Of a stretch of 38,509 nt of DNA, positions 5,157 to 38,509 are shown piece after piece; the stretch's first letter is position 1; each line of letters opens with the position of its first letter. The stretch is from a virus. The DNA is taken from positions 1-38,509 of the IMG/VR virus record IMGVR_UViG_3300012352_000396, one strand, 5' to 3'. The notes beneath the pieces were generated by a model that saw only the letters and a list, made by a program, of their open reading frames with translations, searched no databases and was not told the origin of the DNA. The translations under genes were made by a program, and so were the position numbers.

Positions 5157-5429
5157 TCAAATTGTTTTATAGCAATAAACGTCAATGTCTTCAATGCAGT
5201 CAACATACCTTGCATGGATGCCAACTTTATTAAGCGTTTCAATCCTTTGCACTTGTAGAGGCTTAGGAGTCTCACCTTCGGCTTTTACCTCAAGCATGAT
5301 GGTGTTACCCTTACGAAAGCAAAGAAGGTCAGGAACGCCATTCCAATTCGTTTGGATCAGCTTTATTACAAGCCACCCATGTTGCTCAAGCTTCTTTTTG
5401 ATTTTTGTCTGAAGTTGCGATTCTTTCAT
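5157..5429 (-). CDS. VRR-NUC / PD-(D/E)XK nuclease domain protein
   Basis: 90 aa. GVPDLL...LEVK motif arrangement, as in VRR-NUC Holliday-junction-resolvase-like nucleases. Confidence 0.6.
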   Translation of the reverse strand: MKESQLQTKIKKKLEQHGWLVIKLIQTNWNGVPDLLCFRKGNTIMLEVKAEGETPKPLQVQRIETLNKVGIHARYVDCIEDIDVYCYKTI

Positions 5430-17536: not shown

Positions 17537-17832
17537 GCGGGGATAAGAGTAAGTTGTAATTGTTGTGCTGCCCAATCAATAATCCAAGCATTAGCATCTG
17601 GGGAAGAAGACCATGATGTGTAGTCTGCACCTGAGCAAGTAAGTCTTCCCGTTTGGATGTACCCACCTGCTTGGTTGTTACCATCTGCATCGACATAGTT
17701 CTCACGAATGCCCCAATCGAGATCCGCTTTCCTACTCAAGTCATCATAGCCTGAGTTAATCTCAAACCATTGTGCGGTCTTCTGCTGCCCTGCTACCCAA
17801 TCAATTGTGATGGGTTGAATTTCATTTATCAT
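17533..17832 (-). CDS. Hypothetical protein, 99 aa (between the two fibers)
   Basis: ATG ORF translationally coupled to the downstream fiber gene. Confidence 0.6.
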   Translation of the reverse strand: MINEIQPITIDWVAGQQKTAQWFEINSGYDDLSRKADLDWGIRENYVDADGNNQAGGYIQTGRLTCSGADYTSWSSSPDANAWIIDWAAQQLQLTLIPA

Positions 17833-20955: not shown

Positions 20956-21594
20956 TTAAATAGCTATATATGCAGCAACAACGCTCACTCCATTCAAACT
21001 CGCACCAAGATTTATAACCGGACCGGCACTAACAACATAATTGTAGTACCACCTACCATTATACCCAACGGCAACCAACTTATGAGAACCGGTGTTGCGC
21101 CCAGGTATTGTACCACCACTAACCGTATATGTATCAACAATAGTCAACTCAGTTATCGCACCATTACCTTGTAAAGTGAATGAGTACGCAGCGTTTTGAC
21201 TAACCGTTGATGTCAATGATAACTCTTGGAATATACATCCAAATTTATATAATTTGTAGTTATTCTGAGCATCAATAAAGTCTATGTAAGCAACAAAACT
21301 ATCCGTTGTACCAATCGTAACCGCATCACCACCCTCAATAAAAGAATCGAAAAAAGTGATAGGCAACATATTGTCTTCTACCATTTTTACAAGACCATCA
21401 CCCGTAACCGTGAACGTTGTCTTGTTCTTCATATAAGAACGAAACGCAACAGACGAACTTGTCTTTGGAGCAAGTTCAAAAAAGTCTCTTGATATACTCA
21501 ATGAAACATTCTTCGCACAAGCAAATGGATATACGTTACCACTCGCATTTGTTGCGGCTATAACTAAACCTTCTGCTTTTACAACGTCTGCCAT
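20956..21594 (-). CDS. Tail tip/baseplate-associated protein, 212 aa
   Basis: Call rests on position downstream of the tape measure and tip genes. No motif recognised. Confidence 0.5.
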   Translation of the reverse strand: MADVVKAEGLVIAATNASGNVYPFACAKNVSLSISRDFFELAPKTSSSVAFRSYMKNKTTFTVTGDGLVKMVEDNMLPITFFDSFIEGGDAVTIGTTDSFVAYIDFIDAQNNYKLYKFGCIFQELSLTSTVSQNAAYSFTLQGNGAITELTIVDTYTVSGGTIPGRNTGSHKLVAVGYNGRWYYNYVVSAGPVINLGASLNGVSVVAAYIAI

Positions 21595-24032
21595 TATTCG
21601 TATAAATATTTATCCCTATATGGGTCGTAGTTAATTGCGTTTGGTATTGAATACGAACTTATCTGAAAACTACCTCCCGTGTGTTGTAAAGATACGATAG
21701 AACTTGAATAAGTTATTTGAAAATAATCATTAGGATTTATCGTAATACTTCCGGCAGGAGACAAGTTCATTGACAATGGGAATGGGTTAGCATTCACACT
21801 TAAATTCTGTGTCCTTATTATCGTACCATTTTGATACAAATTAAACGTAACAGTTATTGGAAATGAAGTAGTCGATATTATGCTACCTGCAAGTGAAACA
21901 ACTAATGGAGTAGTTATAGCTACCGGACCCTTATAATAAATTGTATCATTACCATTGCTAACAAAGTCTGGGTTAGTTGTCGTATTAAAAGGAACGGTTG
22001 TCCTACCAGTATAAGTACCACTCCTAACACCAATGTTTAATGAACGTGTAATTGCTGCTGAACCATCTCTCGCATTATCCCACATCTCTTCCAATGTCAA
22101 TGTCATTGTTGCAGCAGCGTAATCAATCTCTCTTATGTTAGATACATAATAAACCTTATTAGGGTCGTCATTAGTGAACACAAAAGTATTCATAAATGAT
22201 ACCGACCTTGGCGTACCACCATCATCCCATTTAACCCCATACAAGCTTACATCTATCTTATTCCTATCGTATCTATTATGCGACCATCTTGATATGGCAT
22301 TTTGCTTTCTAAAGCTATGCTTCTCTGTTGAGTATCTAAATCTAAACCAATTGTCATCTGCAATAGTAATATCGTCAGTCTCAAACAAAGCACCTTTATT
22401 GCTTGGTGATGCAGTAGAATCAAAAACTATCGTGTCGCTAAAATCAAACCTAAGATCCGATGTCTTCTCAAAAATAGATTGAACCCCACTAATTTGAACC
22501 TCAGTTGTATCGAACTGGTTAGCTACTTCTACTTTTAAGTTCTTAAAATACCTTTCTTGATTTACCTCACTACCATAATTAGAGTAAAGAAGATATAAAG
22601 TTAAATTTCCAGTATCTGGGAATGGTAAAGATTCTACTTCTAAAGTATGCCATTCTGTTGGAAGTATTTTTTGCGGACTATTAAACTCTACATTTACGTT
22701 ATCTGATAGGTTTCCGGTAGTAGTCCATTTTCCTTCTTCATTTAGATAATATGTGTTAGATGTAGCTGATAATTTTAATACAAGTGTAGGTACATTTGTT
22801 TTTAAAACTGAAGGCAATAATTGAAATTCATATAAATATTTAGTGTCTACCGAAACCTTAATTCTTTGACCAAATGTAACTTGTATTTCGTTTGATTTTA
22901 TCATATATGCCACTACTGGAGCAACTGGATATGGTAAAACTATATAGTTATCTCTTAATGGTGATGTATTGCTTAAAAACGTTTCTCTCCTATAAAAATT
23001 TATTGTGTATGGTGTATTTGTAATGTAACTTGTAACTGCCGTAAAGCTATCAATAGAATAATCTTTAAAAGTAGGATATACGCTTGTTAAAGAACCCCTT
23101 GAGAAAGAAGAGTTTTTGAAAACCTCTTCGTAGTTGCTATAATTAAATTGAATTGTATTGCTCTTAACCTGCCTTTTTATGAACCTCAACATCTCCGGAG
23201 AGATTGGCTTCAATGTTTGATTAACACCTATCTGAACATCATACCTCCTACTAAGATTTGTAATCGTAGCACCATTAACGCTAACGCCCCTTAAATTGGT
23301 TGTAGTTGGCGTATAAAGTTCTTCCAACCTCAACATCACCAAACCATTATAGTACTGAAATATCGTCTGATTGAAAGCCTTATTTATATTCTCAATAGTC
23401 TTGTAGCAATCATTAAATAAAGTTGGAGTCTCTTCAAAAGTCCTGCTATCTATTTTTGTTTGTACCAAGCACGTTTGTGGCAATGTCGTTGACATTGAAT
23501 CATGGTACAAATTATTTATAATCGTATAAACTGTTAAGTCAAATGGCATATCCTGCAATGCAAACGCCAAATATTGGAAAGGCGTGTACATACCATCAAT
23601 AGCTGATCCATTATTAGATAACTTTATACTCTTTAGCATTCCAAAACCATCCGTAGCACTAATTTTTAATATATGGCTACCATCAAACCAAACCTCCTCA
23701 AACTCAGTTTGCAATACATATCCCTTCCAAAAAGGAGTAGACATATCTATAAAAAAGAATCTAACCTCTATATCAGTATCCGCATTAGCCAAGAACCCAT
23801 CCGAACTAATAGTTGACAAACTTGCAATAATCTCTATATCGGCTTTCAATGCTCTTATAGGCTTAAAAACATCTTCTTCACCATTATACTCGCTTATCAC
23901 AAAAGGCTTTGATGTGCCAACTAAGTTTACAATAGGCTCTATAACACTATGCCCTTCCACAAAGAAAGATACCCTGCATTGGTCTCCTTGGTGAGTATAA
24001 AACTCAAGTCTATATTTTTCTGCTTTAGCCAA
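21594..24032 (-). CDS. Large tail tip protein at the Dit/Tal position, 812 aa
   Basis: Immediately follows the tape measure gene. Only a TTG start is available, overlapping the TMP stop by 8 nt. Functional call is by synteny only. Confidence 0.6.
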   Translation of the reverse strand: MAKAEKYRLEFYTHQGDQCRVSFFVEGHSVIEPIVNLVGTSKPFVISEYNGEEDVFKPIRALKADIEIIASLSTISSDGFLANADTDIEVRFFFIDMSTPFWKGYVLQTEFEEVWFDGSHILKISATDGFGMLKSIKLSNNGSAIDGMYTPFQYLAFALQDMPFDLTVYTIINNLYHDSMSTTLPQTCLVQTKIDSRTFEETPTLFNDCYKTIENINKAFNQTIFQYYNGLVMLRLEELYTPTTTNLRGVSVNGATITNLSRRYDVQIGVNQTLKPISPEMLRFIKRQVKSNTIQFNYSNYEEVFKNSSFSRGSLTSVYPTFKDYSIDSFTAVTSYITNTPYTINFYRRETFLSNTSPLRDNYIVLPYPVAPVVAYMIKSNEIQVTFGQRIKVSVDTKYLYEFQLLPSVLKTNVPTLVLKLSATSNTYYLNEEGKWTTTGNLSDNVNVEFNSPQKILPTEWHTLEVESLPFPDTGNLTLYLLYSNYGSEVNQERYFKNLKVEVANQFDTTEVQISGVQSIFEKTSDLRFDFSDTIVFDSTASPSNKGALFETDDITIADDNWFRFRYSTEKHSFRKQNAISRWSHNRYDRNKIDVSLYGVKWDDGGTPRSVSFMNTFVFTNDDPNKVYYVSNIREIDYAAATMTLTLEEMWDNARDGSAAITRSLNIGVRSGTYTGRTTVPFNTTTNPDFVSNGNDTIYYKGPVAITTPLVVSLAGSIISTTSFPITVTFNLYQNGTIIRTQNLSVNANPFPLSMNLSPAGSITINPNDYFQITYSSSIVSLQHTGGSFQISSYSIPNAINYDPYRDKYLYE

Positions 24033-26859
24033 CTCTACTTATTGTTGAATTTGTTCTATTCATTGCACCCACCAAATCATTCCCCCTCAATACCATATTA
24101 ACCTGACCCGACATACTAACTCCTTGATTACCCCTTATCCTACCAAAATTAGCTTGTCCTCCTTTCTTATCACCAGTTGGAAATAAATCTATCCAATCAG
24201 TTACTGCGTCATAGCTACCCAATGTTTCAGTACTTATACCCTTCAAACCTGCGCCAAGTGCCTGACCTGAACCTGGTGCTAATAAATTTGCTATACCTTG
24301 GATTAAAGCCTTAGATATCAAAGCAGCTATAATCCTTTTTATTTCGTTAACCGCTGCATCGGCAAAATCCTTCCAATTAACCTTTCCTTCTTCAAGGAAA
24401 TCTCCAAATGTCTTCTCTAAAAGACCTTGTACCCCACTTAAAGCAGATGTTATTTTATTTTTAAAATCTTCTGCTTTTTTTGTTTGGTCTTCAAGATATT
24501 TATTAGCTTCTTCTAATAACTTAAAGTCAAAATTGGTGTCAATCTCTAAAGTGACTTTTGCCTTTAACTTACTTAACTCATTATTTATTATTTCCGATAT
24601 CTGAGAATCAAATAGAGTTCCTGTTTTTAGAAATTCTAAAGATAAAATTTCAAGTAGATTTTTCTTAAATTCTTCTAAAGAAGGGAACTTACCATCAAAT
24701 TCTCTAAATGATTCAAGAACACGGTCTGGTAAATCTTTAGCTAAATCTTTTATTTTATTAAACTCAAAATTATCAAATAAAGATTCTAATGTATCATCAA
24801 GTCTTGCCCCAGTAATTTGGTTAGCAGCAGATTTATAAGAAGCACCCCAATCTGATATAAGTTGCTTAGAGTCTTTTAGCGTTTTTTGATATTCTGCTTC
24901 TTTTACAATTAAGTCTTGTAATTTAAAACCATAAATTTCAATTGCTTGAGAAATATTTTTAAGAGGAGTTTTCCCTATCTGAAAAGATTTAAACAAATCT
25001 TCATTAATACCATAAACATTTAATGAATCCTCGCTCAAATTCTTGAGTGCTTCTGACCTTTCTTTCTCTGTCTTGTTTACATCAAGAACAATATCTGCAT
25101 ATTTCTTTAACCTATCTATCGACTTATCAAGCGAGTTATAATCTGTAAGTTCTTTATAATCTGGACTTAGTTTTAAATCAAACTTAAAGTCAATTTTATT
25201 TTTTTTACCCCCTTCAAGTTGTTTCTTCTGCTCTTCCCTTAACTTTCTTAAATTTTCTCTAAGAGTTTCTAATGCACTACTTGTTTTTGATGTTTGATTT
25301 ACAAGAGGTTCAAATGATTTATACCATTCTTCTTGAACGCCATTAATTTGAAATACTTCTTTTCTTGCTTTTTCAACCTTATCTCCATATATTCCTAAAA
25401 GAACAACCGCATCGTCTTGTATTTGTATTTCCTCAAGAGTTAATCCTTCACCTTTTTTACTCTTTTCATTAATCTTTGCTATCTTGGTTCTTAAATCTAA
25501 TTCCTCTTGGTTTGCTTTTTTAAGCTTACCATTTGCTATTAGCCTTTTACCCTCTAAATCATCAAGAACTTTAGATATAGCTTTTTGCCTTGTCTGAACT
25601 CTTATCAGGTTTATTACTGCTTGTGCGTTTTCGCCAATAAGTTGTATGCTTGTAGCAGTTGATAGATTCTGCTCATCAATACCTGCAACAATATCCGGAT
25701 TAATTTCTTTTAATGCCCTATAAGCAGCTAATCTCTCAACTTGTGTTGCAGTCTCGTCTTGAAAGTTTTTAACAAGTATTTGTATCTGTGCTATATTGCC
25801 ACCAATACCTTTATTTTGACTATCTAATTCCTTGTTGAAAGCAACTTGAGCTTGTACGGCAGTTCCGTTAGCACCTATTAAAACATTTACCGCATTCGTT
25901 AAAGAACCATATTCTTTTATTGCGTATGTTACAACGGCAGTAACAGCACTAAACGCCAAAAATACACCTGCCGGACCTACTAACACTTTACCAAGTTCCT
26001 TCAAAGCACCTCCACTACCTTTACTCTCTGTCTTCAACTCACTAAATGTTTGAAGTACGGCAGGTAAGTTGTTTTGAATCGCAATGAATCCAAATGGTAA
26101 GTCCTGAGCCACCAAAGAGAGGCTTGTGATGGCTTGTCTTGCCTTGGCTGATGATTGAGTCAACTTACCACTTGGGTCGATAGAAAGGTTCTTAAACCTC
26201 TCTATACGACCTTCTAATACTTTAATCTCATCATTAGTCCTCGCAATCTCTCTTTCATCAAGAAGGTCTATATTTTTTGCTGATGCCCTTAAATCGTTAA
26301 GCTGCTTCTCTAACCCTGCTATTGAGTTTTCTAATACCGGAGATATCGGCTTTACATCTATATCAATACCACGACCTTGTAGTTCCTTTAATCTATCTTT
26401 AAGCGTGGTAATTATGCGATTATACTGCTCAATAGCACCAGTATCAAAAGGACTTTGAATATCTCTCCTTTGAGTTAGTTCTGCTATCGTTTTTTTAATA
26501 TCCGCAATAGAACCATTAGGAGGAGGCTCAATATCTATCTTAACACCAATGCCTTTAAGACGTTTTATCTCGTCTGTATATTCTTTTATCTGCTTATTAG
26601 CAGCCTCAAAATTAGCAATATCAAACTTTGGTAAATTGTCTCTTGATGCTTCTAAATCTTTAATCTTTGACTTTAGATCCGCAATAGAACCCTCAACTAA
26701 AGATGCATCAACCTCTAACTTTAGCTTTTTGCCCTTAGTTGTAAAAGCATCATTGAACTCCTTTTGGAGTTCTTTTAATCTTGAAGAAGCCCTTTCAACC
26801 TCAGCTAAAAAGGCTGAGGCATCTCCGGTAATTGGTATATTTAAAGAAGCATTAGCCAT
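24025..26859 (-). CDS. Tape measure protein
   Basis: 944 aa, long coiled-coil-type K/E/L-rich sequence, central hydrophobic segments (VGPAGVFLAFSAVTAVVTYAI). Canonical position after the G/G-T genes. Confidence 0.85.
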   Translation of the reverse strand: MANASLNIPITGDASAFLAEVERASSRLKELQKEFNDAFTTKGKKLKLEVDASLVEGSIADLKSKIKDLEASRDNLPKFDIANFEAANKQIKEYTDEIKRLKGIGVKIDIEPPPNGSIADIKKTIAELTQRRDIQSPFDTGAIEQYNRIITTLKDRLKELQGRGIDIDVKPISPVLENSIAGLEKQLNDLRASAKNIDLLDEREIARTNDEIKVLEGRIERFKNLSIDPSGKLTQSSAKARQAITSLSLVAQDLPFGFIAIQNNLPAVLQTFSELKTESKGSGGALKELGKVLVGPAGVFLAFSAVTAVVTYAIKEYGSLTNAVNVLIGANGTAVQAQVAFNKELDSQNKGIGGNIAQIQILVKNFQDETATQVERLAAYRALKEINPDIVAGIDEQNLSTATSIQLIGENAQAVINLIRVQTRQKAISKVLDDLEGKRLIANGKLKKANQEELDLRTKIAKINEKSKKGEGLTLEEIQIQDDAVVLLGIYGDKVEKARKEVFQINGVQEEWYKSFEPLVNQTSKTSSALETLRENLRKLREEQKKQLEGGKKNKIDFKFDLKLSPDYKELTDYNSLDKSIDRLKKYADIVLDVNKTEKERSEALKNLSEDSLNVYGINEDLFKSFQIGKTPLKNISQAIEIYGFKLQDLIVKEAEYQKTLKDSKQLISDWGASYKSAANQITGARLDDTLESLFDNFEFNKIKDLAKDLPDRVLESFREFDGKFPSLEEFKKNLLEILSLEFLKTGTLFDSQISEIINNELSKLKAKVTLEIDTNFDFKLLEEANKYLEDQTKKAEDFKNKITSALSGVQGLLEKTFGDFLEEGKVNWKDFADAAVNEIKRIIAALISKALIQGIANLLAPGSGQALGAGLKGISTETLGSYDAVTDWIDLFPTGDKKGGQANFGRIRGNQGVSMSGQVNMVLRGNDLVGAMNRTNSTISRVG

Positions 26860-27503: not shown

Positions 27504-27938
27504 TTATGCAGTTATGTCAAGAACTCCGGTTGATTGTACAGTTCCGCTAAAGTTAATAAACTCGCCAGAAGCTTGGTTCATAGTAAGTGAAGTCACATAC
27601 CCACTAAACTCATGGTGATAGAAGAGACCGGCAGAAGAACCAGTTTGAACCGGACTTGAAAGTTTTACACGGATCAATGTCTTATTAACTGATGCGGTTA
27701 ATAAATCCTTATAGGATATTTGAGATGCAGTTGGTGCAGTCTCGCATATTGCATCAAAGTTTAAAGCCATTGAAGGCTCACCTACTGCGCTCAATACGCC
27801 ACAATTGGTTTGCTCACTTGTTACATCGTTTGTAGTGTCTACTGATGAATTTCTAAGACAAACAAGTGATTTAAATGTAGTACCTAAATTTGTTACATCT
27901 ATGTCAACCTGTTGGTTAGTACCTAATATCTGTGCCAT
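27504..27938 (-). CDS. Major tail (tube) protein
   Basis: 144 aa, located directly upstream of the chaperone pair. Call by synteny. Confidence 0.6.
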   Translation of the reverse strand: MAQILGTNQQVDIDVTNLGTTFKSLVCLRNSSVDTTNDVTSEQTNCGVLSAVGEPSMALNFDAICETAPTASQISYKDLLTASVNKTLIRVKLSSPVQTGSSAGLFYHHEFSGYVTSLTMNQASGEFINFSGTVQSTGVLDITA

Positions 27939-28379: not shown

Positions 28380-28797
28380 TTCTTATAATATTTTGTATTT
28401 TTTCCATAAGCCTTGGCAACTCTGCCTCGTATGATGGGTACAAGTATTTGTTCACTTTAATCCTTCCAGGTATTGGAGTTATAAATTGAGCAGCTATCTC
28501 TCTCCACTCCTCCGGTATTGATGGTAAATACGCTTTTGCCGAAGGTCCAGTACCAAACTCATAATAAGCAGCATATTTATTCCCAACCTTAATCCTATAC
28601 TTCAATTTAGAAGTCCTCGTTAAAGTAATAGTTGATCCGATGTCATCACCTTTAAAATCCGTTACTCCTTTAGACTTAGCATCATTAACAACGTTCTCAA
28701 AAGACTGACCCATAGCCAAATCAATTTCACTAAGCAAATTATTAGCACTTGCTTTGAAGTCTCTTATGAATGCGCTGAAATTGACCTTTTTAGCCAT
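28372..28797 (-). CDS. Head-tail joining protein (HK97 gp10-like position)
   Basis: 141 aa. Call by synteny only. Confidence 0.45.
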   Translation of the reverse strand: MAKKVNFSAFIRDFKASANNLLSEIDLAMGQSFENVVNDAKSKGVTDFKGDDIGSTITLTRTSKLKYRIKVGNKYAAYYEFGTGPSAKAYLPSIPEEWREIAAQFITPIPGRIKVNKYLYPSYEAELPRLMEKIQNIIRNA

Positions 28798-29354
28798 TAT
28801 ATGACCACTTTTCTATGTTGGTGATAGTTGAGTCCATTCCAATCTGGATAACTCAATAGTAAGCCTTGTTTAGCGTCTCCAAGCATCTTTTTACCACGAT
28901 TCTCATAAGACCATGTTACCAAAGTCTCAATATCCGTTACCAAATCCTCCGGCACTTGCCCATAACCACATTCGTACTCAATGTCGTAAATACCTTGGCT
29001 ATACAAAATAACCTTACCACCAATAACCTCATACTCTACGTTCTTCGTCAAAGTAGTATAGTCATTGATGCCATTCTTTATCTTCACAACCGGAGTACAA
29101 TCAAATGAAGTAAATGGCAAATCCACAACCCACATATTCCTATTGCCACTCAACTCAAACAACACCTTATAGGTTTGGTTAGTTAGTGCAACACTTGTTA
29201 ATCTCTCTATGTGCTTTCGTGCAGATGTGATTAAATCTCCTATAAGACCATTATCGTTGTCATCACGAACACGCATCCAATTCTTTATATCGGTCAAAGA
29301 TATAGGCTCAATCATTGAGTCACTTATCTTCTCTATGTTGTAGTATTGAATCAT
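28797..29354 (-). CDS. Head-tail connector/adaptor (gp6-like)
   Basis: N-terminus ISLTDIKNWMRVRDDNDNGLIGDLITSARKHIERLT matches the usual gp6-like 'l..lK.hLRvd.d.dD.li..li.aA...ie' pattern. Confidence 0.6.
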   Translation of the reverse strand: MIQYYNIEKISDSMIEPISLTDIKNWMRVRDDNDNGLIGDLITSARKHIERLTSVALTNQTYKVLFELSGNRNMWVVDLPFTSFDCTPVVKIKNGINDYTTLTKNVEYEVIGGKVILYSQGIYDIEYECGYGQVPEDLVTDIETLVTWSYENRGKKMLGDAKQGLLLSYPDWNGLNYHQHRKVVI

Positions 29355-30331
29355 AATCTTCCGTTATATTGGTGTACTTTTTCTTCGAACCAACTATTGA
29401 ACTCATTAAGTTTTTTTCTTGGGTCATGCTCCCTGCTTCTCGCTTTTGCTTTCTTGGATGCGACATGATAAGCCTTTTCTTCATCCAACTTTGTAATGGC
29501 TTCAACCCATTCTTTAACATCATTCCTATTTTTTACATAGATACCTGCCTTACCACAATTCTCCTTCAATCCCTCTGCCTCCGATGATATAACCGGAATG
29601 CCACTACACATAGCCTCTGTCGCAGTTCTTCCCCAACTCTCATAATGCGATGGCATAAGCAAAACCCTCGTCTTCTTATACACATCTCTTATCTCGACCG
29701 TGTTGCTTATGTAAGTGAGGTTGTGCAATTCTTGCACTATCTGCGGATCATATGAGCCAATAACGCCCAAGAATTGCTTATGTGGCATTGCCCTTGCAAT
29801 ATCTATAAACACTTTAGCACCCTTATTTTCGTTTACGTTGATTAAAGTAATATAAGGGTTATCTATCGTATCCATATCAACATCGTAGTACCTATAATCT
29901 ACCGGTGGCGTTAACACAAAATCCGGATGGTCATATTTTAAATAATCCTTCGCCCATTGAGAGTTGTAAATGATATGCTGCCTCTTTAACGCATTCTCTA
30001 TCTCTGGGTAGTTATATGTATTGTGAATCAAATGGAATACTGGCTTCTTATACATCCCACCAAGATTTATACTCAAATGAGTAAAGTCAAGGTGAGTTAT
30101 TACCGAATCACACCAATGAAATAAGTTTTGTATTATTTGTGGATCAGGAGGAAAGATATCTACCCCATCAAAAACATAAGTCTTTGTAATCTTATAATAA
30201 TTCGCTTGATGTAATAATACTCTTACATCATGTCCTCTTGATTGTAAATCTTTAAGCAAATGGTGTAGCATCCACTCAGCACCGCAATTATGCTGCGGAG
30301 GATATAAGTGAATTGATGCAAGTATTTTCAT
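29351..30331 (-). CDS. Glycosyltransferase, GT-B fold, GT4-like (EX7E motif)
   Basis: VLLMPSHYESWGRTATEAMCSGIPVISS contains E-x7-E and the EAM..G.PVI signature. Confidence 0.8.
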   Translation of the reverse strand: MKILASIHLYPPQHNCGAEWMLHHLLKDLQSRGHDVRVLLHQANYYKITKTYVFDGVDIFPPDPQIIQNLFHWCDSVITHLDFTHLSINLGGMYKKPVFHLIHNTYNYPEIENALKRQHIIYNSQWAKDYLKYDHPDFVLTPPVDYRYYDVDMDTIDNPYITLINVNENKGAKVFIDIARAMPHKQFLGVIGSYDPQIVQELHNLTYISNTVEIRDVYKKTRVLLMPSHYESWGRTATEAMCSGIPVISSEAEGLKENCGKAGIYVKNRNDVKEWVEAITKLDEEKAYHVASKKAKARSREHDPRKKLNEFNSWFEEKVHQYNGRL

Positions 30332-30921
30332 ATTTTAAAAGTTATGTCAGACTCTTCGATGTGTGTTTTATATTTCTTATATCTAAACTTCATATAATCA
30401 TAGAATATGCCACTTAGATAATGCTTCTCAAATTTAATCTCTTTTACATTATACTTATCCAAATCTATGCTACCAACAATACGCTCATCGTATCCCTCGC
30501 AATCAACTTGAATATAATCTACGCTATCCCAACCATATTTATCCATAAGGTCGTCAAACGTAATAGACCTAACACGCAGCTTTGTTACGTGTATAGGACT
30601 TACATCTTTCATAAAAACATTTAATGGCTTTCCATCCTCTATCACACAAGAACAACCATCAATGTAGTCATCATAATAAGATAGATCCGCAGGATGGACA
30701 TAAGCCATCTCTACACTCTCTCTCTTATTCGATATTGCAGTACACTCGTAATAAACCTCACCTTTTAAATCATTAGTGTTCGCAGTTAGCGACATAAAAT
30801 GATAAGGAATAGGTTCTACGAATATTACTTTAATATCCTCAAGTACTCTTAGTCTGTTATAGATGTCGTCATGTTTGACACCATCCATAGCACCTATAAT
30901 AACGAAGGTTTTATGTTGCAT
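30328..30921 (-). CDS. FkbM-family SAM-dependent methyltransferase
   Basis: VIIGAMDG near the N-terminus (SAM-binding loop) and VDYIQVDCEGYDERIV (the I.KIDvEG.E motif). Confidence 0.7.
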   Translation of the reverse strand: MQHKTFVIIGAMDGVKHDDIYNRLRVLEDIKVIFVEPIPYHFMSLTANTNDLKGEVYYECTAISNKRESVEMAYVHPADLSYYDDYIDGCSCVIEDGKPLNVFMKDVSPIHVTKLRVRSITFDDLMDKYGWDSVDYIQVDCEGYDERIVGSIDLDKYNVKEIKFEKHYLSGIFYDYMKFRYKKYKTHIEESDITFKI

Positions 30922-30957
30922 AAAGTTAGGGGAGGTGTTACCCTCCCCCTATTTGAT

Positions 30958-32133
30958 TTAGATGTTGCCGTAGATAGCAGCAGTAGGCTGATATTGCAAC
31001 AATGCAGTACGTGCTTCACACCTAAATGTTACGAGATTCTGTTGGAAATCTGTACCATTGTAAGGAGTTGAAGAAACGTTGATTCCGGATTGTTGTGCAA
31101 TTGCATACTTAGACAAGTCGATGATATACATCTTACCGGCAGTTACCTGAGAGTGAGGAACAACTGGAACACCAGCAATCCTTACAATACCATTGTTGTC
31201 AATAGTGGTAGCACCTGGAAGAGAGTAATCAGTACCCTTAGTCTTCATCAAAGAAGCCCAACCTGCATGGGTAATCAAAGAGATACCGGCAGTCCAGTTC
31301 AAAGTCTGAAGTTGAGCAACGTAGTCGATGAACTTCTCTGCGGTGTTAGCACCAGAAGAAACACCGGCAGTAGCCGCAGAAGCAATAGCGTTGAGAATCT
31401 CAACGTTCTCTCTTTGTTGGAAGTCTTCAATAAGTGAATTCTGAAGATATGATTGCAAGAAGAAAAGGTCATCAAGCATCTGACGAGATACCTTAACCCA
31501 TCCTGCAAGGTATTGCAAAGGATTGTTAATCATCTCGATGTCATAATCCAACTGAGCCTTATCAGTGGCCTCCAAGGTCTGACGACCAAACGAGCCTTCA
31601 CCTGTGGGGGTCTTAGCACGTGGAAACGTTACTGATCCACCTTGCACCGGAACAACATTGATGAGAGAACGCAAGTGAGGATTCACAAACGACCTCATAA
31701 ATGAGTTGTCAAGATAGCTGATGTAAGCAGTACCAGTAAGGTTGTTGGCAAGAGTCATCGTACCAACTGCTTTCAGGTCTATGCTATGGCTGAAATCTCT
31801 TCCACCCTGACGACCTGCTTCCTTAACAATCAACTCGTGATTCTGAGCAATAGCATCGGCAATACCAGACTTGATTTCGGTAATCATAGCACCATAAGTG
31901 CTTGTTACTTTCTCTTCGTTCTTAGAAGAAATCTTACCGAAAGCAGCCTTCATTTTACCGAACTCATCCATAGCCTCTCCAAGAGTTTTGTTACTCTTTT
32001 CCATAGACTCGTTGAGTTTAGAAACCTTATCTTCGAATTGCTTTGCAGCCTTTTCGTTTTCTGCTGCGAGTGCAGCTTTCTGCTCGTTCATTTTATGTTC
32101 CAGAGCAGATTGGAACTCTTTCAAATTTTCCAT
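30958..32133 (-). CDS. Major capsid protein, HK97 fold, with N-terminal coiled-coil delta (scaffold) domain
   Basis: 391 aa. The first ~100 aa are K/E/A-rich helix. Follows an S78-type protease, the canonical HK97 arrangement. Confidence 0.85.
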   Translation of the reverse strand: MENLKEFQSALEHKMNEQKAALAAENEKAAKQFEDKVSKLNESMEKSNKTLGEAMDEFGKMKAAFGKISSKNEEKVTSTYGAMITEIKSGIADAIAQNHELIVKEAGRQGGRDFSHSIDLKAVGTMTLANNLTGTAYISYLDNSFMRSFVNPHLRSLINVVPVQGGSVTFPRAKTPTGEGSFGRQTLEATDKAQLDYDIEMINNPLQYLAGWVKVSRQMLDDLFFLQSYLQNSLIEDFQQRENVEILNAIASAATAGVSSGANTAEKFIDYVAQLQTLNWTAGISLITHAGWASLMKTKGTDYSLPGATTIDNNGIVRIAGVPVVPHSQVTAGKMYIIDLSKYAIAQQSGINVSSTPYNGTDFQQNLVTFRCEARTALLQYQPTAAIYGNI

Positions 32134-32142
32134 TTTGTTGAT

Positions 32143-32838
32143 TTAAAAACTGTTGAGAATAGATATCAAACTTTTCTCAAGCATTTCGTCAACCTTTGGC
32201 TGCTCTGGCTCTTTAACAGATGCCTTTGTGCTACTTAGCTCCTCTACTGCTTGTGCTAATTGTCTAACCTTGATTAAACACAAATCGATAGTGTGGTCAC
32301 TTGCATCGGTATTGCGTATAAACTTTTCAAATTTACGAATTTCTTCTTTCAATTCATCAATATCCTTTTCACCCTTGAACCCAAGGAAAGGTGTAACCTC
32401 ATTTGCACCCCATGCAGTCAATGAAGACCCCTCAAACAACTTCACATCCTTAATCTCATTACCACCTTGACCCTTTTGCTCATTGAGGATATTAAAGCCA
32501 ATAGAATGCTCACTAATGATTCCTGCCTCTGCTAACTTAATGAAGTCCATACCATAACTCGTCTCTACAAGCTTCGACTCATAGTACAAACCAAAGTCAT
32601 CCTCTTTTAAAACTGTAATCCTTCCAAGTGGAAGATTAGGATTGTGATTCTGCAAATGCTTTATTCGCTCCTTACCATTCGGACCCCAATCTTGTATAGA
32701 CCTCTTAAAGGCTCCAGGCATCATTATGTCTCCATCACTATCTAAGTTACCAAAGGATGAGAAGTAACCACTAACAACTAAACTCTTCCTATCTACATCC
32801 TTCATCTCTATTTTCGATGCTTTATATCTATATAACAT
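32143..32838 (-). CDS. Prohead maturation protease (HK97 / S78 family)
   Basis: SGYFSSFGNLDSDGDIMMPGAFKRSI ... HN ... signature. Sits between the MuF-like and capsid genes. Confidence 0.8.
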   Translation of the reverse strand: MLYRYKASKIEMKDVDRKSLVVSGYFSSFGNLDSDGDIMMPGAFKRSIQDWGPNGKERIKHLQNHNPNLPLGRITVLKEDDFGLYYESKLVETSYGMDFIKLAEAGIISEHSIGFNILNEQKGQGGNEIKDVKLFEGSSLTAWGANEVTPFLGFKGEKDIDELKEEIRKFEKFIRNTDASDHTIDLCLIKVRQLAQAVEELSSTKASVKEPEQPKVDEMLEKSLISILNSF

Positions 32839-32848
32839 TTTTATGATT

Positions 32849-33715
32849 TTATCTTTTTTGAATAATATTATTATTGTTGTCTCTCCTTGGTATAAACGCT
32901 ACCGTGCATCTACAATTTATAGTAAACCCTATTGGCGTTTTAGGATCTCCTGGAATATCTGCAAGTATCATTCTACCAAACCTATCAATACTCGTAAAAG
33001 GCTCGTTCAATGGCTTCACCTGACCATCCATATTCCAATGGTCGAAGAAATCTTTTGGTACTCTCCTTGTCCTACTATCTCTTCTTGCTATCCACATCTT
33101 ATCTACCTCAAAAGTATGCTTTGTTGATGCCAAATATAAACCATAATTACTTGCCCTCATTACTTCGGTCTTAGCAATATTAGCACCTCTTCTTTTTAAT
33201 GACTCTAACTCTTTGTCTTTTAAAATTAGATCCGCTATCTCATACTTATCTTTACCATCCGTAATAAATGTAGTCACTAATAATGATAACCTCTTTTTAG
33301 TTGTATTCGTTATTAATGATGCAATCCAAAAGCCATAGTTTAAAAAGAAGTTCAATATCTCCTCTATGAAAGAACTATCCAACCCATACGGATCAGTTGA
33401 TTTAGTTGCCATGCTCCTCGTTGCCCTATATGATGCATTACCAAATATTGCACCACACTCACGATATAAATCCTTCAATATAACCAATAACTCATCGTTC
33501 CATAAATACGTTGCTAACCGGTTGTTTGCACCATCAGCACCATAAATCAATACATCCTTAACAAACGCCCTCACCTCGCTATCTAAGGCATCGTAGATGA
33601 GCATCCCATACTTTTTATTCAATCCCCTCCTCAAACGCTCAACTCTGATCCAGTAGTCGCTGCGCTGACTCACGCTCATCTTCAAGTCTCTTTTTGTAAG
33701 ACTGCCTTGCCTCAT
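32849..33715 (-). CDS. Head morphogenesis protein (SPP1 gp7 / Mu F family)
   Basis: W.ARRDSRTR...H..MDGQ...PF....PGDP....NCRCT motif set. Confidence 0.8.
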   Translation of the reverse strand: MRQGSLTKRDLKMSVSQRSDYWIRVERLRRGLNKKYGMLIYDALDSEVRAFVKDVLIYGADGANNRLATYLWNDELLVILKDLYRECGAIFGNASYRATRSMATKSTDPYGLDSSFIEEILNFFLNYGFWIASLITNTTKKRLSLLVTTFITDGKDKYEIADLILKDKELESLKRRGANIAKTEVMRASNYGLYLASTKHTFEVDKMWIARRDSRTRRVPKDFFDHWNMDGQVKPLNEPFTSIDRFGRMILADIPGDPKTPIGFTINCRCTVAFIPRRDNNNNIIQKR

Positions 33716-35181
33716 TCCTCATCATTTGTTCCGTTCGGCAAGTCCTCTCCGTCAGGATTTTCGGAAATCTCGTCATCACTATCTCCCATATCTCTTGGTC
33801 CGTTGTCGTTGCCGTTATCATTCGTTACGTTTAAATCCATTCCTGCAAACTCAATAGGTATCAATCCTTGATTCAAATAGCTTGTTGCCCACGGACCGCC
33901 CTTCTCATCATAGTTCATCGCAACACGCTTCTCATCCATTGTCAACCAGTTAGCATCACGAAGAGAACGAACCATCCTCTCCATGTCTTGCTGCATCTCC
34001 GGTAACGCAGTTATATCAAAATCAATAAACAAATCTTCACCATACCTTGGTAATAACCAATGATTCAACTCATCCCTCAAATTAGCACACATTGGAACAA
34101 TAGTGTTAGTCACCAAGTCCCTCATCGCATTCTGATAATTATTGTAAGATGACGTATCCGTATCAAATATCACCGCAGGTAAACCAAACACCCTACACCA
34201 TTGCTGCAAACTCACCTGCATAGCCTTCACTAACTCCATATCAACACTCGACAACCCGAAGTTCATATACTCCCAAGGCGTTTGCAACACCGCAACCCTA
34301 CCCTTATTGTCAGTACCATTAATCCTTGAATTCACAGTACCCTGGATGTCATTGGCTTGAATCTCCGTTGGCTGCGTAAATATACCCCCTTGCAAAACCT
34401 TTGGTACAATAGCACCCTTTGCGCCTCCATTGGCAGCCATAGTGGCACTCGCATCATAAGCATTGTTACTCATGCGCAAAGTCTTATAAGCACTCATAAC
34501 CGGACTAACGCCCCTCATGTGCGCCCTTGTAGTCTCGTTGAAGTCAGGATTCCATCCCTTCCACATCAAAACGTTATCCTTTGGCAAATCCTTACCCTTA
34601 CTAATCTCTAACCTATAACCAAGCACACCATACAAATCGTTCGGATCAGCATAAATCTGCAAGAACTGCGTTGGCAACACATTCAACTCCATAAACTTGC
34701 CACCCATATTACCATCATTGCCATATATGCTACCCTCCCCGCTCAAGAATCTATAACCAAACAAGTTCTCCAAAAAAGCATCCTGCGCCTGATATTGGTT
34801 AGGTCTATCAAGTAACTTAGCAAGTGGCGTGTCCATAACTATATTCTCACGATAGGCATTCTTCCTTAACATCATTGCCTTATCGTAATTATTGATACCA
34901 CCCCTTAAATTCGTTAGCTTCTTATATTCATACAATGACTTCTCCGCTCCCTCACCCTTCTCCAACCTATAAACATACCAAGGTATGCTACTCGCCTTCC
35001 TCGCAAGAAACTGGACAATCGCAAACACATCTGCATTCCCCAAATAACCATCCCTAACGTAGTCTATATCATTCTTAGATTGTAAAGTCGCACCATTAAC
35101 CCTCCTTAACAAACTATCGGTATCTATATTAGGGTTTAAACCCTTCTTCCTATCTCCTAAGAAAAAATCAAATAATCCCAT
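33712..35181 (-). CDS. Portal protein
   Basis: ~490 aa between TerL and the MuF-like gene, with an acidic C-terminal tail. The start is ambiguous (ATG 35181 or GTG 35202). Confidence 0.8.
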   Translation of the reverse strand: MGLFDFFLGDRKKGLNPNIDTDSLLRRVNGATLQSKNDIDYVRDGYLGNADVFAIVQFLARKASSIPWYVYRLEKGEGAEKSLYEYKKLTNLRGGINNYDKAMMLRKNAYRENIVMDTPLAKLLDRPNQYQAQDAFLENLFGYRFLSGEGSIYGNDGNMGGKFMELNVLPTQFLQIYADPNDLYGVLGYRLEISKGKDLPKDNVLMWKGWNPDFNETTRAHMRGVSPVMSAYKTLRMSNNAYDASATMAANGGAKGAIVPKVLQGGIFTQPTEIQANDIQGTVNSRINGTDNKGRVAVLQTPWEYMNFGLSSVDMELVKAMQVSLQQWCRVFGLPAVIFDTDTSSYNNYQNAMRDLVTNTIVPMCANLRDELNHWLLPRYGEDLFIDFDITALPEMQQDMERMVRSLRDANWLTMDEKRVAMNYDEKGGPWATSYLNQGLIPIEFAGMDLNVTNDNGNDNGPRDMGDSDDEISENPDGEDLPNGTNDEE

Positions 35182-35186
35182 CTCTT

Positions 35187-36332
35187 TTAAATTGCTCCCC
35201 ACGTTATCGTAGGAATGGTTAATTTACTAAACACCGCATACCTCATCGCATCACAAGCATGGTCATTGAACTTAGTAGGCTCGTCAAGCTTCATCCCATT
35301 CCTATCCGTCTTCCACCTATAAGACCTCAATTCCTTTAACAAATTTATCGAATCTTGATGAATAACTAATGGATTACCTTTTATTGTTCTAATCCCCTCA
35401 GTTACATCCTTATTAGCACCCTTAGCATTGAACCCCCTCCTCGTTAACTCTTGTATCGTCTTCGGTTCTGCGGCATCACAAAAGAACTCATCATTACCAC
35501 CCAATCCCAAAGCAACCAACTTGTCAACCAAATCATTAGTAGTTAGCCTCGTCTCGTATAAAATCTCCTCAACATAAATCACCCCATCGTGAAACACCAC
35601 CTTAACAACCGCACTTGGATTGTTAAAACCAAAATCCACCCCATACACAACCTCACCACCACTTGGCATCTCACTCGTAGTCCTATAATGGCTATAAATC
35701 AAATCTTGATTCAATCCCCTTTCCCCTAATCCATAAATCTGCCAGAAATTAGGATCAGCCTCCCTTAACCTCTCCAACTCACTAACCAACTCCTTGGGGA
35801 GGAAGGGATTGTCCCTAAACGTTGTAATAAAGAAATCTGCATCATCCCTTGGGATAACATGGTCATATATGTACGAACTTATATCCGAAGGATTATAATC
35901 TATCACAGTCTTACCCTCCGTCCTCATAATTAACTGCATCCACACTTCATACGACAACTCATTAGCCTCATTACAAAACAAATAATCCCTTCTCCTACCC
36001 CTTATCTTCTGAGGTTGGTCTGCACTAACAAACTCTATCACATTCCCATTCAACGAGTATATCTGATCCGTCTTATTATGGTTATCCTCACTATAAATGT
36101 TCATCTTAGTAAGAATATCTATAAAGTCCCTTAAAACCGTACCCTTAATGCTTGGAAGCGACTGCCTTACAATAGTCAAAGTCTTATCCTTCTCCTGCAA
36201 TAACTTCACAATAAACCAAATAAGGATATTATACGTCTTACCGGATCTTGAACCGCCCTGCATCACAGTTATCCTCTTATCACTATCAGCCAGTATATCA
36301 TAAACCTTATTGGTCTGTAAAGTCACTTCCAT
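35187..36332 (-). CDS. terL: Terminase large subunit
   Basis: Walker A GGSRSGKT near the N-terminus and C-terminal nuclease region (DFGF...D...D). ATG at 36332 is preferred over the GTG at 36383. Confidence 0.85.
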   Translation of the reverse strand: MEVTLQTNKVYDILADSDKRITVMQGGSRSGKTYNILIWFIVKLLQEKDKTLTIVRQSLPSIKGTVLRDFIDILTKMNIYSEDNHNKTDQIYSLNGNVIEFVSADQPQKIRGRRRDYLFCNEANELSYEVWMQLIMRTEGKTVIDYNPSDISSYIYDHVIPRDDADFFITTFRDNPFLPKELVSELERLREADPNFWQIYGLGERGLNQDLIYSHYRTTSEMPSGGEVVYGVDFGFNNPSAVVKVVFHDGVIYVEEILYETRLTTNDLVDKLVALGLGGNDEFFCDAAEPKTIQELTRRGFNAKGANKDVTEGIRTIKGNPLVIHQDSINLLKELRSYRWKTDRNGMKLDEPTKFNDHACDAMRYAVFSKLTIPTITWGAI

Positions 36333-36411
36333 TTTATAGAAAAAATTAAATTTTAAACCAATATTAACAAAGCAAAAGTACACATAAAAAAGGGGGTCAT
36401 CGTATACAACA

Positions 36412-38202: not shown

Positions 38203-38224
38203 GCCCATATGTAAGCCGGTTAAG

Positions 38225-38509
38225 GTCAGTTAATGGACGTTTAAACGCTATAGGTCAGTTAATGGACGTTTAAACGCTATAGGTCAGTTAATGGACGTTT
38301 AAACGCTATAGGTCAGTTAATGGACGTTTAAACGCTATAGGTCAGTTAATGGACGTTTAAACGCTATAGGTCAGTTAATGGACGTTTAAACGCTATAGGT
38401 CAGTTAATGGACGTTTAAACGCTATAGGTCAGTTAATGGACGTTTAAACGCTATAGGTCAGTTAATGGACGTTTAAACGCTATAGGTCAGTTAATGGACG
38501 TTTAAACGC
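38225..38509. repeat. 29-bp perfect tandem repeat, 9.8 copies, each with the 10-bp palindrome CGTTTAAACG
   Basis: 285 nt = 9 x 29 + 24, with no spacers and no variation between units. It continues into nt 1-54 across the window junction. Confidence 0.95.

Follow-up and report, generated by a model that had tools for sequence, protein, structure and literature searches.

The window, i.e., the whole stretch of DNA analysed here (38,509 nucleotides; IMG/VR virus record IMGVR_UViG_3300012352_000396, positions 1 to 38,509), belongs to an uncultured freshwater phage. Annotation of its ORFs with HMM searches placed all genes of the late morphogenesis block on the minus strand, including a two-enzyme cassette that is bordered by the major capsid protein (MCP) gene upstream and by the head-tail adaptor gene downstream:

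30958..32133, minus strand: MCP, HK97-fold, with an N-terminal coiled-coil delta domain (Pfam Phage_capsid, 5.5e-24; phrog_10)
30929..30948, minus strand: GC-rich hairpin, GGGGAGG-N6-CCTCCCC, within the gap between MCP and MT
30328..30921, minus strand: MT, FkbM-family SAM-dependent methyltransferase of 197 aa (PF05050; TIGR01444)
29351..30331, minus strand: GT, predicted GT4 (GT-B fold, retaining-type) glycosyltransferase of 326 aa (PF13692; PF00534; phrog_26352)
28797..29354, minus strand: gp6-like head-tail adaptor (PF05135 Phage_connect_1, 8e-9; phrog_442, 1.9e-13)

On the upstream side of this region lie the genes for protease, MuF, portal and TerL, and those for Neck1, the tail terminator, the tube, the chaperones and the tape measure on the downstream side. 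An earlier note on this DNA had described a GT4-like glycosyltransferase and an FkbM-family methyltransferase, back to back with 4-nt overlaps, between an HK97-type capsid gene and a gp6-like connector gene on the same strand of the late operon, and this arrangement was borne out: the flanking genes have the Pfam and PHROGs matches listed above, and overlaps of 4 nt (ATGA), read from the sequence, join MT to GT and GT to the adaptor, whose start codon shares its ATGA with the GT stop codon. GT is predicted to be translationally coupled on both sides, with MT upstream and with the adaptor downstream. Evolutionarily, dN/dS against the closest relative (L002) was 0.060 for GT, 0.035 for MT, 0.075 for MCP, 0.043 for the adaptor and 0.066 for the protease; values this low, and similar to that of MCP, show strong purifying selection on GT and MT and argue that both are real genes rather than chance ORFs. 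No integrase or lysogeny module was detected in the window, in a search that was less than exhaustive for small ORFs, and no near-identical DNA was found among cultured phages. Because the closest cultured relatives by MCP and portal, phages 11b and phi10:1, infect Flavobacterium and Cellulophaga, and because Shine-Dalgarno-like motifs are scarce in the window (2 of 36 genes), the host phylum is probably Bacteroidota; matches in a genome collection were MAG contigs only, with GT identity of at most 41%, and no prophage context was found there.

Functionally, GT matched the Pfam families Glyco_trans_1_4 (PF13692; 3e-16, 60.4 bits, cutoff 27) and Glycos_transf_1 (PF00534; 4.6e-15, 56.0 bits, cutoff 26.4), and its PHROGs family, phrog_26352 (3.5e-66), is annotated as 'unknown function'. 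The EX7E motif, E231-SWGRTAT-E239, lies in the C-terminal domain, and both glutamates are invariant across 28 homologues (61-90% identity). With the AlphaFold2 model as query (pLDDT 92.7, pTM 0.88), the top Foldseek match in the PDB was MshA (3c4q; 5.8e-16, TM 0.78), followed by BshA, PglA and HepE, and GT is modelled as a two-Rossmann-domain GT-B enzyme of the retaining-type GT4 kind. It shares this fold and the EX7E motif with the bacterial GT4 enzymes MshA, BshA, PglA, PimA and SdgB, but it fell below every NCBIfam equivalog cutoff; its best score was 44.9 bits, where the BshA model demands 273.7. The enzymes that match best in structure use acceptors as varied as inositol phosphate, malate, lipid-linked sugars, glycogen, pterin and Ser-Asp repeat proteins, and we rejected the structure as a guide to the acceptor, since Foldseek returns generic GT4 enzymes whose acceptors are very different. 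Neither GT nor MT has a transmembrane segment (maximum Kyte-Doolittle 19-residue scores of 0.83 and 0.78, respectively), and both are therefore predicted to be soluble, cytoplasmic enzymes.

MT scored above the cutoffs of the curated FkbM models, both Pfam Methyltransf_21/FkbM (PF05050; 2.5e-8, 34.7 bits, cutoff 22.7) and NCBIfam TIGR01444 fkbM_fam (8.2e-12, 45.8 bits, cutoff 37.7), and contains the motifs previously quoted for it, IIGAMDG and VDYIQVDCEGYDERIV. Residues G10, D13, D18, E36, D140, E142 and G143 are invariant across 26 sequences, and these positions (the IIGAMDG region and the acidic residues) we take, from knowledge of the family, to be SAM-binding. The Foldseek comparison proposed in the earlier note, which led GT to GT4 enzymes, gave little for MT on the class I (Rossmann-like) methyltransferase fold expected of the family: its AlphaFold2 model (pLDDT 91) had weak PDB matches to COMT-type O-methyltransferases and rRNA methyltransferases (best 9.3e-4; TM 0.42-0.47), with no close solved relative found in the PDB, and this sets it apart from the FkbM-family glycan O-methyltransferases that it resembles in sequence. 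FkbM domains often occur joined to GT2, GT8 or GT4 glycosyltransferase domains. Of ten multi-domain proteins related to the FkbM domain of MT, six include a GT domain (GT2, GT8, GT32-like or GT4) and two have extra methyltransferase domains, one of these also matching the rhamnosyl O-methyltransferase/CmcI family, while uncultured Caudovirales encode GT-B/FkbM fusion proteins. Such fusions strengthen the earlier suggestion of a possibly O-methylated sugar, and we infer that MT is a glycan O-methyltransferase. A tblastn search with MT against 50,697 cultured-phage records gave no match, and both enzymes appear to form short, phage-specific subfamilies.

The hairpin lies within the 36-nt gap between MCP and MT. 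Across 73 distinct related intergenic sequences, a hairpin recurs at the same place on the 3' side of MCP with differing stems, usually followed by a T-run, so that its conservation shows compensatory sequence change. Its probable role is that of a leaky terminator or an mRNA-stabilising element that would keep the enzymes and the neck genes expressed at a lower level than MCP, and it forms the left edge of a swappable cassette: between two related contigs, L067 and L062, DNA identity collapses just past the hairpin, and 94-100% identical flanks enclose an unrelated stretch of ~600 bp.

Gene order is constant among relatives. All 103 distinct related contig intervals read MCP, terminator hairpin, partner gene, GT4 and adaptor, with GT4 present in 103/103 of the intervals from MCP to GT and none empty, even though MCP identity among them falls to ~57%. 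The same order emerged from either end: in 80/80 viral loci fetched with GT, the gene lies directly upstream of the adaptor, and downstream of MCP wherever the locus extends that far, and the 60 informative loci fetched with MCP alone (60/60) all read partner-GT4-adaptor, which ties the enzymes to the virion module more firmly than a single genome could. Divergence of GT is correlated with that of MCP (r = 0.60, Mantel p = 0.001), which is the behaviour of a core gene of the lineage. More distantly, a phage contig whose portal is 24% identical encodes a GT of 41% identity in the order protease-MCP-ORF-class I MT-GT4, and a still more distant GT homologue, of 29% identity, likewise has a capsid gene close by.

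The partner slot, by comparison, is filled in four ways (n = 103): a class-I-like methyltransferase in 41 intervals, a GT25-like glycosyltransferase in 27, an FkbM methyltransferase in 23, and a GT25-like glycosyltransferase together with an FkbM methyltransferase in 12. Partners differ even between phages whose MCPs are 97.7-99.5% and whose GTs are 96.6-98.5% identical, a pattern that, with the L067 and L062 alignment, shows exchange of the partner gene by clean cassette replacement at the strain level. The FkbM gene is swapped or supplemented in sister phages, and the lineage therefore seems to keep one core sugar transfer and to vary its tailoring. The class-I-like partner has a GxGxG motif and a profile match to PDB methyltransferases (1.5e-4), with no PHROGs match and with Pfam matches that are weak and below cutoff. 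The GT25 label of the other partner rests on intermediate homologues: queried directly against Pfam and PHROGs it had no match, PF01755 was matched by 4 of 16 members, its homologues (~1e-34) bear PF01755 or the name 'GR25 family', and its profile matches procollagen galactosyltransferase 1.

The earlier note had argued from the premise that morphogenesis modules are normally uninterrupted, and for this junction the premise fails. In Flavobacterium phage 11b and Cellulophaga phage phi10:1, two to six small unrelated ORFs lie between MCP and adaptor, which makes the junction a variable slot, and in one related contig (L048) it holds an HNH endonuclease; position alone is therefore weaker evidence than was taken for granted.

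Phage-encoded glycosylation of virion proteins has precedents. PMC12363180, PMC12619734 and PMC4351075 describe mycobacteriophage capsid and tail-tube proteins glycosylated by phage-encoded GTs, with an O-methyltransferase in addition in Corndog and Che8; the underlying work on Che8, Corndog and Myrna (Freeman et al. 2023, Cell Host Microbe 31:1216) is cited here as summarised in PMC12363180 and PMC12619734. The earlier note likened the cassette to mycobacteriophage enzyme pairs in an equivalent place, a likeness that holds only loosely: these phages do pair GTs with an O-methyltransferase (Corndog gp35 is of the TylF type and Che8 gp108 is a GT2-TylF fusion), and the Corndog genes lie inside the head-gene block (PMC4351075). 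It does not extend to the families, which are GT2, GT25 and TylF there but GT4 (GT-B) and FkbM here, nor to the position, which is the MCP-adaptor junction in the window, between portal and protease in Corndog (PMC4351075) and at the right genome end in Che8, and BLASTP of GT and MT against Che8 gp108-110 and Corndog gp35-38 returned no significant match. Hosts (Actinomycetota versus probable Bacteroidota) and habitats differ too, and virion glycosylation, demonstrated in the mycobacteriophages, is for the window a prediction from gene context. By Pfam, Che8 gp110 and Corndog gp38 likewise belong to GT25, and PMC12363180 terms them essential for capsid glycosylation; sister phages of the window carry the GT25-like partner, but a profile comparison of that partner with these proteins was not significant (E 0.068).

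The sole GT homologue in the 50,697 cultured-phage records was gp20 of Streptomyces phage TurkishDelight (29.5% full-length identity, 2e-24), which is annotated as a glycosyltransferase and whose place in the virion operon is between the genes for MCP and the major tail protein. It differs in being a 678-aa tandem double GT4, each half of which matches GT, with a predicted function, an actinobacterial host, no FkbM partner, and neighbours (gp18, gp19) that have no Pfam match. Farther afield, A064R (GT-GT-MT) and A061L (MT) of chlorovirus PBCV-1 have GT and sugar O-methyltransferase activities for the capsid glycan (PMC9614988), a likeness in that virus-encoded cytoplasmic GTs and SAM-dependent sugar O-methyltransferases, in PBCV-1 fused as GT-MT, produce a methylated MCP glycan. 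PBCV-1 is, however, a eukaryotic giant virus, its glycans are N-linked and its enzyme families are different, and we claim no homology.

The candidate acceptors were also compared by sequence. The window MCP is colinear with those of phages 11b and phi10:1, and MCP sequence was rejected as a pointer to the acceptor, as GT-bearing and GT-less MCPs are colinear with no specific insertion and no Ser/Thr-rich tail; the tube protein (0.25) and the large tail proteins are the richest in Ser/Thr, which does not set one candidate apart from another. PMC12619734 places the glycans of mycobacteriophage virion proteins at their C-termini. The Che8 MCP ends in ...KTGS, its tube protein in ...SDGS and the Corndog MCP in ...LVGS, and this '...GS' end, a candidate family hallmark seen on these three Che8/Corndog proteins, is absent from the window MCP (...IYGNI) and tube protein (...LDITA). 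Gene context nevertheless makes a virion structural protein (capsid, tail tube or another tail protein) the best-supported acceptor, a reading to which we give about an even chance.

Since the GT4 is invariant and accompanied by a tailoring partner, both genes are under purifying selection, and FkbM domains occur fused to GTs, we consider that GT and MT almost certainly build an O-methylated glycan; that MT acts on the GT product, and the identity of the donor sugar, we infer. We thus posit a phage-encoded, glycan-building cassette within the late (virion) operon, which would be transcribed by read-through of the post-MCP hairpin and translated in coupling with the neck genes. The soluble GT would move a sugar from a host nucleotide-sugar onto a cytoplasmic acceptor, and MT, with SAM, would then O-methylate the transferred sugar; in sister phages, a class-I-like methyltransferase or a GT25-like second GT would replace the FkbM enzyme, or a GT25-like gene would join it. 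With a structural protein of the assembling virion as the most likely acceptor, the outcome would be a small, strain-variable glycan on the particle surface.

Alternatively, the GT4 and its partner might remodel the host envelope, modifying a lipid-linked precursor of O-antigen, capsule or another surface polysaccharide at the cytoplasmic face, with a superinfection block, or progeny kept from sticking to cell debris, as possible gains. Many GT4 enzymes use undecaprenyl-linked or other lipid acceptors, and PglA, PimA and WbaZ-like proteins are among the GT matches; moreover, Bacteroidota, the probable hosts, have highly variable surface polysaccharides, and because host glycans vary between strains the partner gene would be expected to vary as well, so that the strain-level swapping, which resembles diversification of O-antigen loci, would fit. 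We still regard envelope remodelling as unlikely. Products of a late operon coupled to the neck genes would be made minutes before lysis, with little time to reach the surface, and GtrABC-type and O-antigen seroconversion modules differ from the window, where GT and MT lack membrane segments, no flippase or polytopic GT accompanies them, and no integrase or lysogeny module was found. GT is also a universal gene that diverges with MCP, unlike a sporadic accessory gene, and its distant homologues too lie beside capsid genes.

The contrast with sporadic accessory genes bears also on a role in counter-defence or another non-structural function, in which GT would modify a host protein, a defence component or a small molecule late in infection and the junction would be an insertion hotspot. 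The unrelated genes found there in 11b, phi10:1 and L048 agree with a hotspot, the best full-length PDB sequence match of GT is a small-molecule (tetrahydrobiopterin) glucosyltransferase, and GT exceeds the Pfam gathering score of PF20706, 'GT4 in conflict systems' (32.3 bits versus 26). However, the PF20706 match is confined to ~60 residues (204-266) of the generic nucleotide-sugar-binding region, genes of this sort are normally sporadic rather than present in 103/103 intervals across MCPs down to ~57% identity, and GT always comes with glycan-tailoring enzymes, as would suit the building of a glycan better than a single inactivating modification. We regard such a role as improbable. Hypermodification of DNA, with GT glycosylating a modified base (e.g., 5-hydroxymethylcytosine) in phage DNA and thereby evading restriction, is more remote still. 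T4-type DNA glucosyltransferases share the GT-B fold, and the window does encode a C5-cytosine DNA methylase (5386-6552; PF00145, 1.5e-44); phage methyltransferase-TET-GT pathways that glycosylate 5hmC are described in bioRxiv 10.1101/2023.12.21.572611. Yet no TET/JBP dioxygenase and no dCMP/dUMP hydroxymethylase was found in the ORFs scanned, among them all those of the early region from 130 aa upwards. GT sits in the late structural operon, ~23 kb away from the methylase and outside the DNA-metabolism module, and it is accompanied by sugar-tailoring enzymes and, as another partner, by a second, GT25-type GT. We therefore consider this reading very improbable.

Returning to modification of the virion itself, its broadest form is one we put forward tentatively, as possible but doubtful: that uncultured freshwater siphophages of one abundant clade, whose hosts are probably Bacteroidota, glycosylate their own particles with enzymes unrelated to those of mycobacteriophages, creating a strain-variable 'serotype' from a GT4 core sugar and hot-swappable tailoring under selection. 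The tailoring options would be FkbM MT, class-I MT, GT25, or GT25 with FkbM. As no antibodies act in the freshwater habitat, the selective agent would have to be another, for example grazers, proteases, sensors of host defence systems that detect capsid or tail proteins, or surface chemistry during adsorption.

In the literature we reached, demonstrated self-encoded glycosylation of phage particles is limited to a few actinobacteriophages, whose virion glycans are discussed chiefly as a shield against antibodies that matters for phage therapy. The system described here is compact, with one GT and one tailoring gene and no sugar-biosynthesis genes, and would be handy for reconstitution and phage-surface engineering. 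Were the acceptor a host glycan, the cassette would still be a conserved, late-expressed host-remodelling module, if a less surprising one. If the particles are indeed its target, virion glycosylation would extend to another phage lineage, host phylum and habitat, the non-homologous enzymes would point to convergent evolution, and strain-level exchange of tailoring genes would indicate ongoing diversifying selection on the particle surface that the antibody-shield idea leaves unexplained.

The late genes of the window form a continuous operon on the minus strand, in which two enzyme genes lie between the major capsid and head-tail adaptor genes.

Late operon of the window (coordinates, strand, product)
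35187-36383, minus: TerL
33712-35202, minus: portal
32849-33715, minus: MuF-like protein
32143-32838, minus: S78 prohead protease
30958-32133, minus: HK97-type major capsid protein (MCP)
30328-30921, minus: FkbM-family methyltransferase (MT)
29351-30331, minus: GT4 glycosyltransferase (GT)
28797-29354, minus: gp6-like adaptor
following the adaptor, minus: Neck1-like protein, tail terminator, tube (27504-27938), two chaperone-sized ORFs, tape measure (24025-26859)

The earlier note had placed a GT4-like glycosyltransferase and an FkbM methyltransferase between the capsid and connector genes, and this is confirmed, with both proteins scoring above curated cutoffs (GT: PF13692, 60.4 bits against 27; MT: PF05050, 34.7 against 22.7, and TIGR01444, 45.8 against 37.7). 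The motifs it quoted were found in both sequences, and the genes do overlap back to back by 4 nt, the MT/GT and GT/adaptor pairs each sharing ATGA. The EX7E glutamates of the GT are invariant among homologues, and its AlphaFold2 model (pLDDT 92.7) best matches the retaining GT4 enzymes MshA, BshA, PglA and HepE, while the MT model (pLDDT 91) gives weak class-I methyltransferase matches; no hydrophobic segment was found in either protein. Values of dN/dS against the nearest relative were 0.060 for the GT and 0.035 for the MT, comparable to the values for MCP, adaptor and protease, and this analysis excludes that they are spurious ORFs. Further along, downstream of the tape measure and an 812-aa tail protein, a second protein (20956-21594) is weakly similar to major tail (tube) proteins (phrog_1407, 9.6e-6) and may be part of the distal tail, or a tube-like element of the baseplate.

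Other genes in the window include a PrimPol-helicase, an SNF2 helicase, an exonuclease, an M15 endolysin and, in the early region, a C5-cytosine DNA methyltransferase (5386-6552; PF00145, 1.5e-44) adjoined by small nuclease-like ORFs (phrog_452, phrog_93); no integrase was detected in the window. A perfect 29-bp tandem array with the unit AGGTCAGTTAATGGACGTTTAAACGCTAT occupies the window end (9.9 copies, 38223-38509) and continues for ~2 more copies at its start (1-54). Since both ends of the window fall inside the same array, it has the appearance of a complete genome of ~38 kb, assembled as a circle. Across the junction the array is iteron-like, with ~12 copies; it may be a repeat with a role in origin function or packaging, or in part an assembly overlap. 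Just past this array, in an apparently non-coding stretch between divergent gene blocks, lies a short degenerate A6C4-type tandem repeat of period 12/23 (204-290).

In metagenomes, the GT family comprised 1553 clusters at E<=1e-5, and the MT only 25 (word-indexed search). The GT was directly upstream of the adaptor in all 80 viral contigs fetched with it, and downstream of the MCP wherever the locus extended that far. To remove the selection bias of GT-based fetching, loci were also fetched through MCP alignment, and here the order partner-GT4-adaptor held in 60 of 60 informative loci, with the partner being the gene in the slot between MCP and GT4 that differs among related phages. This slot was never empty (0 of 103 distinct MCP-to-GT intervals lacked a partner).

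Partner types among the 103 distinct MCP-to-GT intervals
Class-I-like methyltransferase, 166-169 aa: 41
GT25-like protein, 185-187 aa: 27
FkbM MT of the window type: 23
GT25-like protein plus FkbM MT: 12

The class-I-like partner carries a GxGxG motif, and its profile matches PDB methyltransferases (1.5e-4). The 185-aa partner had no direct Pfam or PHROGs match; we term it GT25-like because its homologues (~1e-34) carry PF01755 or bear the name 'GR25 family', four of 16 members match PF01755, and its profile matches procollagen galactosyltransferase 1 and Mimivirus R655.

Evolutionary distances of the GT track those of the MCP (r = 0.60, Mantel p = 0.001), and partner types are mixed even inside clusters of MCPs at least 95% identical. 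Two related contigs illustrate this: L067, with a GT25-like partner, and L062, with a class-I methyltransferase, are 94-100% identical in DNA through the MCP and again from ~100 nt into the GT, and between these flanks lies an unrelated segment of ~600 bp (L067: 2620-3255). This is a clean cassette replacement, the left edge of which is a terminator-like hairpin after the MCP. In the window, this hairpin is GC-rich and directly follows the MCP (30929-30948), with a weak T-run; related loci show a hairpin at the same place in 73 distinct intergenic sequences, with differing stems and, in most, a following T-run, and it is probably a leaky terminator setting the capsid-to-downstream expression ratio. 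One relative carries an HNH/NUMOD4 homing-endonuclease gene in the MCP-GT slot (L048:3664-4152; PF13392, 2.2e-15), and cassette exchange may be favoured by mobile elements active at this junction.

An exhaustive profile search with the MT recovered 11,392 representatives at E<=1e-3, 45 of them at E<=1e-30. In six of ten scanned multi-domain relatives the FkbM domain is preceded by a glycosyltransferase domain (two GT2, two GT8, one DXD 'Gly_transf_sug' and one GT4), and two carry extra methyltransferase domains, class-I-type in one and, in the other, Methyltransf_24 with a rhamnosyl O-MT/CmcI match. The closest multi-domain relative (P0269, a metagenomic protein of 631 aa; 1.7e-56) consists of an unknown domain of ~220 aa, an FkbM domain and a class-I methyltransferase domain, thus joining in one protein two of the enzyme types that replace one another in the phage slot. 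In BFVD, Caudovirales proteins of 787 and 936 aa named FkbM have a GT-B domain matching the GT model. These domain fusions support a role of the MT on a glycan made by the neighbouring GT.

Deeper relatives of the GT were found in very different phages. A 41%-identical GT, from a phage with a portal only 24% identical whose contig was binned with an alphaproteobacterial MAG, lies in the order protease-MCP-ORF186-class I MT-GT4, and a 33%-identical GT lies just after TerL on an actinomycete MAG contig. The sole cultured-phage homologue, gp20 of Streptomyces phage TurkishDelight (L001:8959-10995), is annotated as a glycosyltransferase. It is an internal tandem duplication, in which each of the two GT4 modules is complete and shares ~28-30% identity with the window GT; like the latter it sits in virion genes, here flanked by the capsid gene and the major tail gene. 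Thus, this GT subfamily recurs with virion or packaging modules, usually beside the capsid gene, across very distant phages.

Functionally, we posit that read-through of the post-MCP hairpin would give low-level late expression of the cassette, with translational coupling tying it to the neck genes, and that the GT4 would transfer a host-derived sugar onto a cytoplasmic acceptor, after which the FkbM MT would O-methylate the sugar so placed. The donor has to be supplied by the host, since the rest of the window showed no genes for nucleotide-sugar synthesis. Where GT4 is a phage's sole glycosyltransferase, as in the window, it is necessarily the one that acts on the acceptor. Partners would then act on the sugar, making them exchangeable without MCP change, as across a swap between phages with 99.5% identical MCPs. 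That GT and MT together build a methylated glycan we hold to be highly probable. Late expression, the cytoplasmic location of the enzymes, the status of the GT4 as a core gene and its repeated occurrence beside capsid genes make a virion protein the best-fitting acceptor, though we put the chances of this at about even. Candidates are the MCP, the tube protein, the adaptor and the large tail proteins (14888-17575, 17843-20227 and 21594-24032). Remodelling of the host envelope would fit both GT4 biochemistry and the strain-level variability, but it sits poorly with late coupled expression and the core-gene behaviour of the GT4, and no membrane components or lysogeny genes were detected; we consider it unlikely.

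A counter-defence or other accessory role appears more doubtful still: the slot is variable in cultured relatives and the GT passes PF20706, though over a generic 60-residue region, whereas the GT4 is universal in relatives and glycan-tailoring partners are constant. Glycosylation of DNA by the GT is very improbable, since the C5-methylase that might recommend it is unlinked to the GT, and neither TET nor hydroxymethylase was found among the window ORFs scanned.

Our preferred reading, a cassette glycosylating a virion protein, resembles known systems in part. Che8, Corndog and Myrna are mycobacteriophages whose own GTs glycosylate capsid and tube proteins (Freeman et al. 2023, as summarised in PMC12363180, PMC12619734 and PMC11256854). 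The fetched genes comprise, in Corndog, a TylF-type O-MT (gp35), a GT2-like protein (gp37) and a GT25 (gp38), located between portal and protease (PMC4351075), and in Che8 a GT2-TylF fusion (gp108) and a GT25 (gp110), at the right genome end; no similarity of these enzymes to the window GT or MT was found. The mycobacteriophage likeness drawn by the earlier note therefore holds in outline (a phage-encoded, late GT plus O-MT) but not by homology, position or acceptor motif: the '...GS' C-termini of the Che8 MCP, Che8 tube protein and Corndog MCP are absent from the window MCP and tube protein. The TurkishDelight capsid ends in '...GSTS' and its major tail protein in '...VAS', and a C-terminal Ser may, judging from these sequences, be a recognisable acceptor signature in actinophages. 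The GT25-like partner found among the window's sister phages shares its Pfam family with the Che8/Corndog GT25 proteins, which are reported essential (PMC12363180); direct profile comparison of the two was not significant. The PBCV-1 enzymes A064R and A061L provide a second functional analogue (PMC9614988).

As for the host, no near DNA match was found in cultured phages, and the closest cultured MCP and portal relatives (25-32% identity) are phages of Flavobacterium and Cellulophaga. Among all 36 minus-strand gene starts, only two have a Shine-Dalgarno-like motif upstream, a scarcity typical of Bacteroidota, and these upstream regions are A-rich. Together, these features suggest a Bacteroidota host. 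The searchable literature yielded no description of this clade, nor of virion glycosylation in Bacteroidota phages, an absence that is not proof. The proposed system is familiar in its logic, with a glycan added to the particle by the phage's own enzymes. Its novelty would lie in the use of unrelated enzymes, in an architecture of fixed core and swappable tailoring, and in a different host group and habitat, and the comparative pattern behind it is robust and carries clear predictions.
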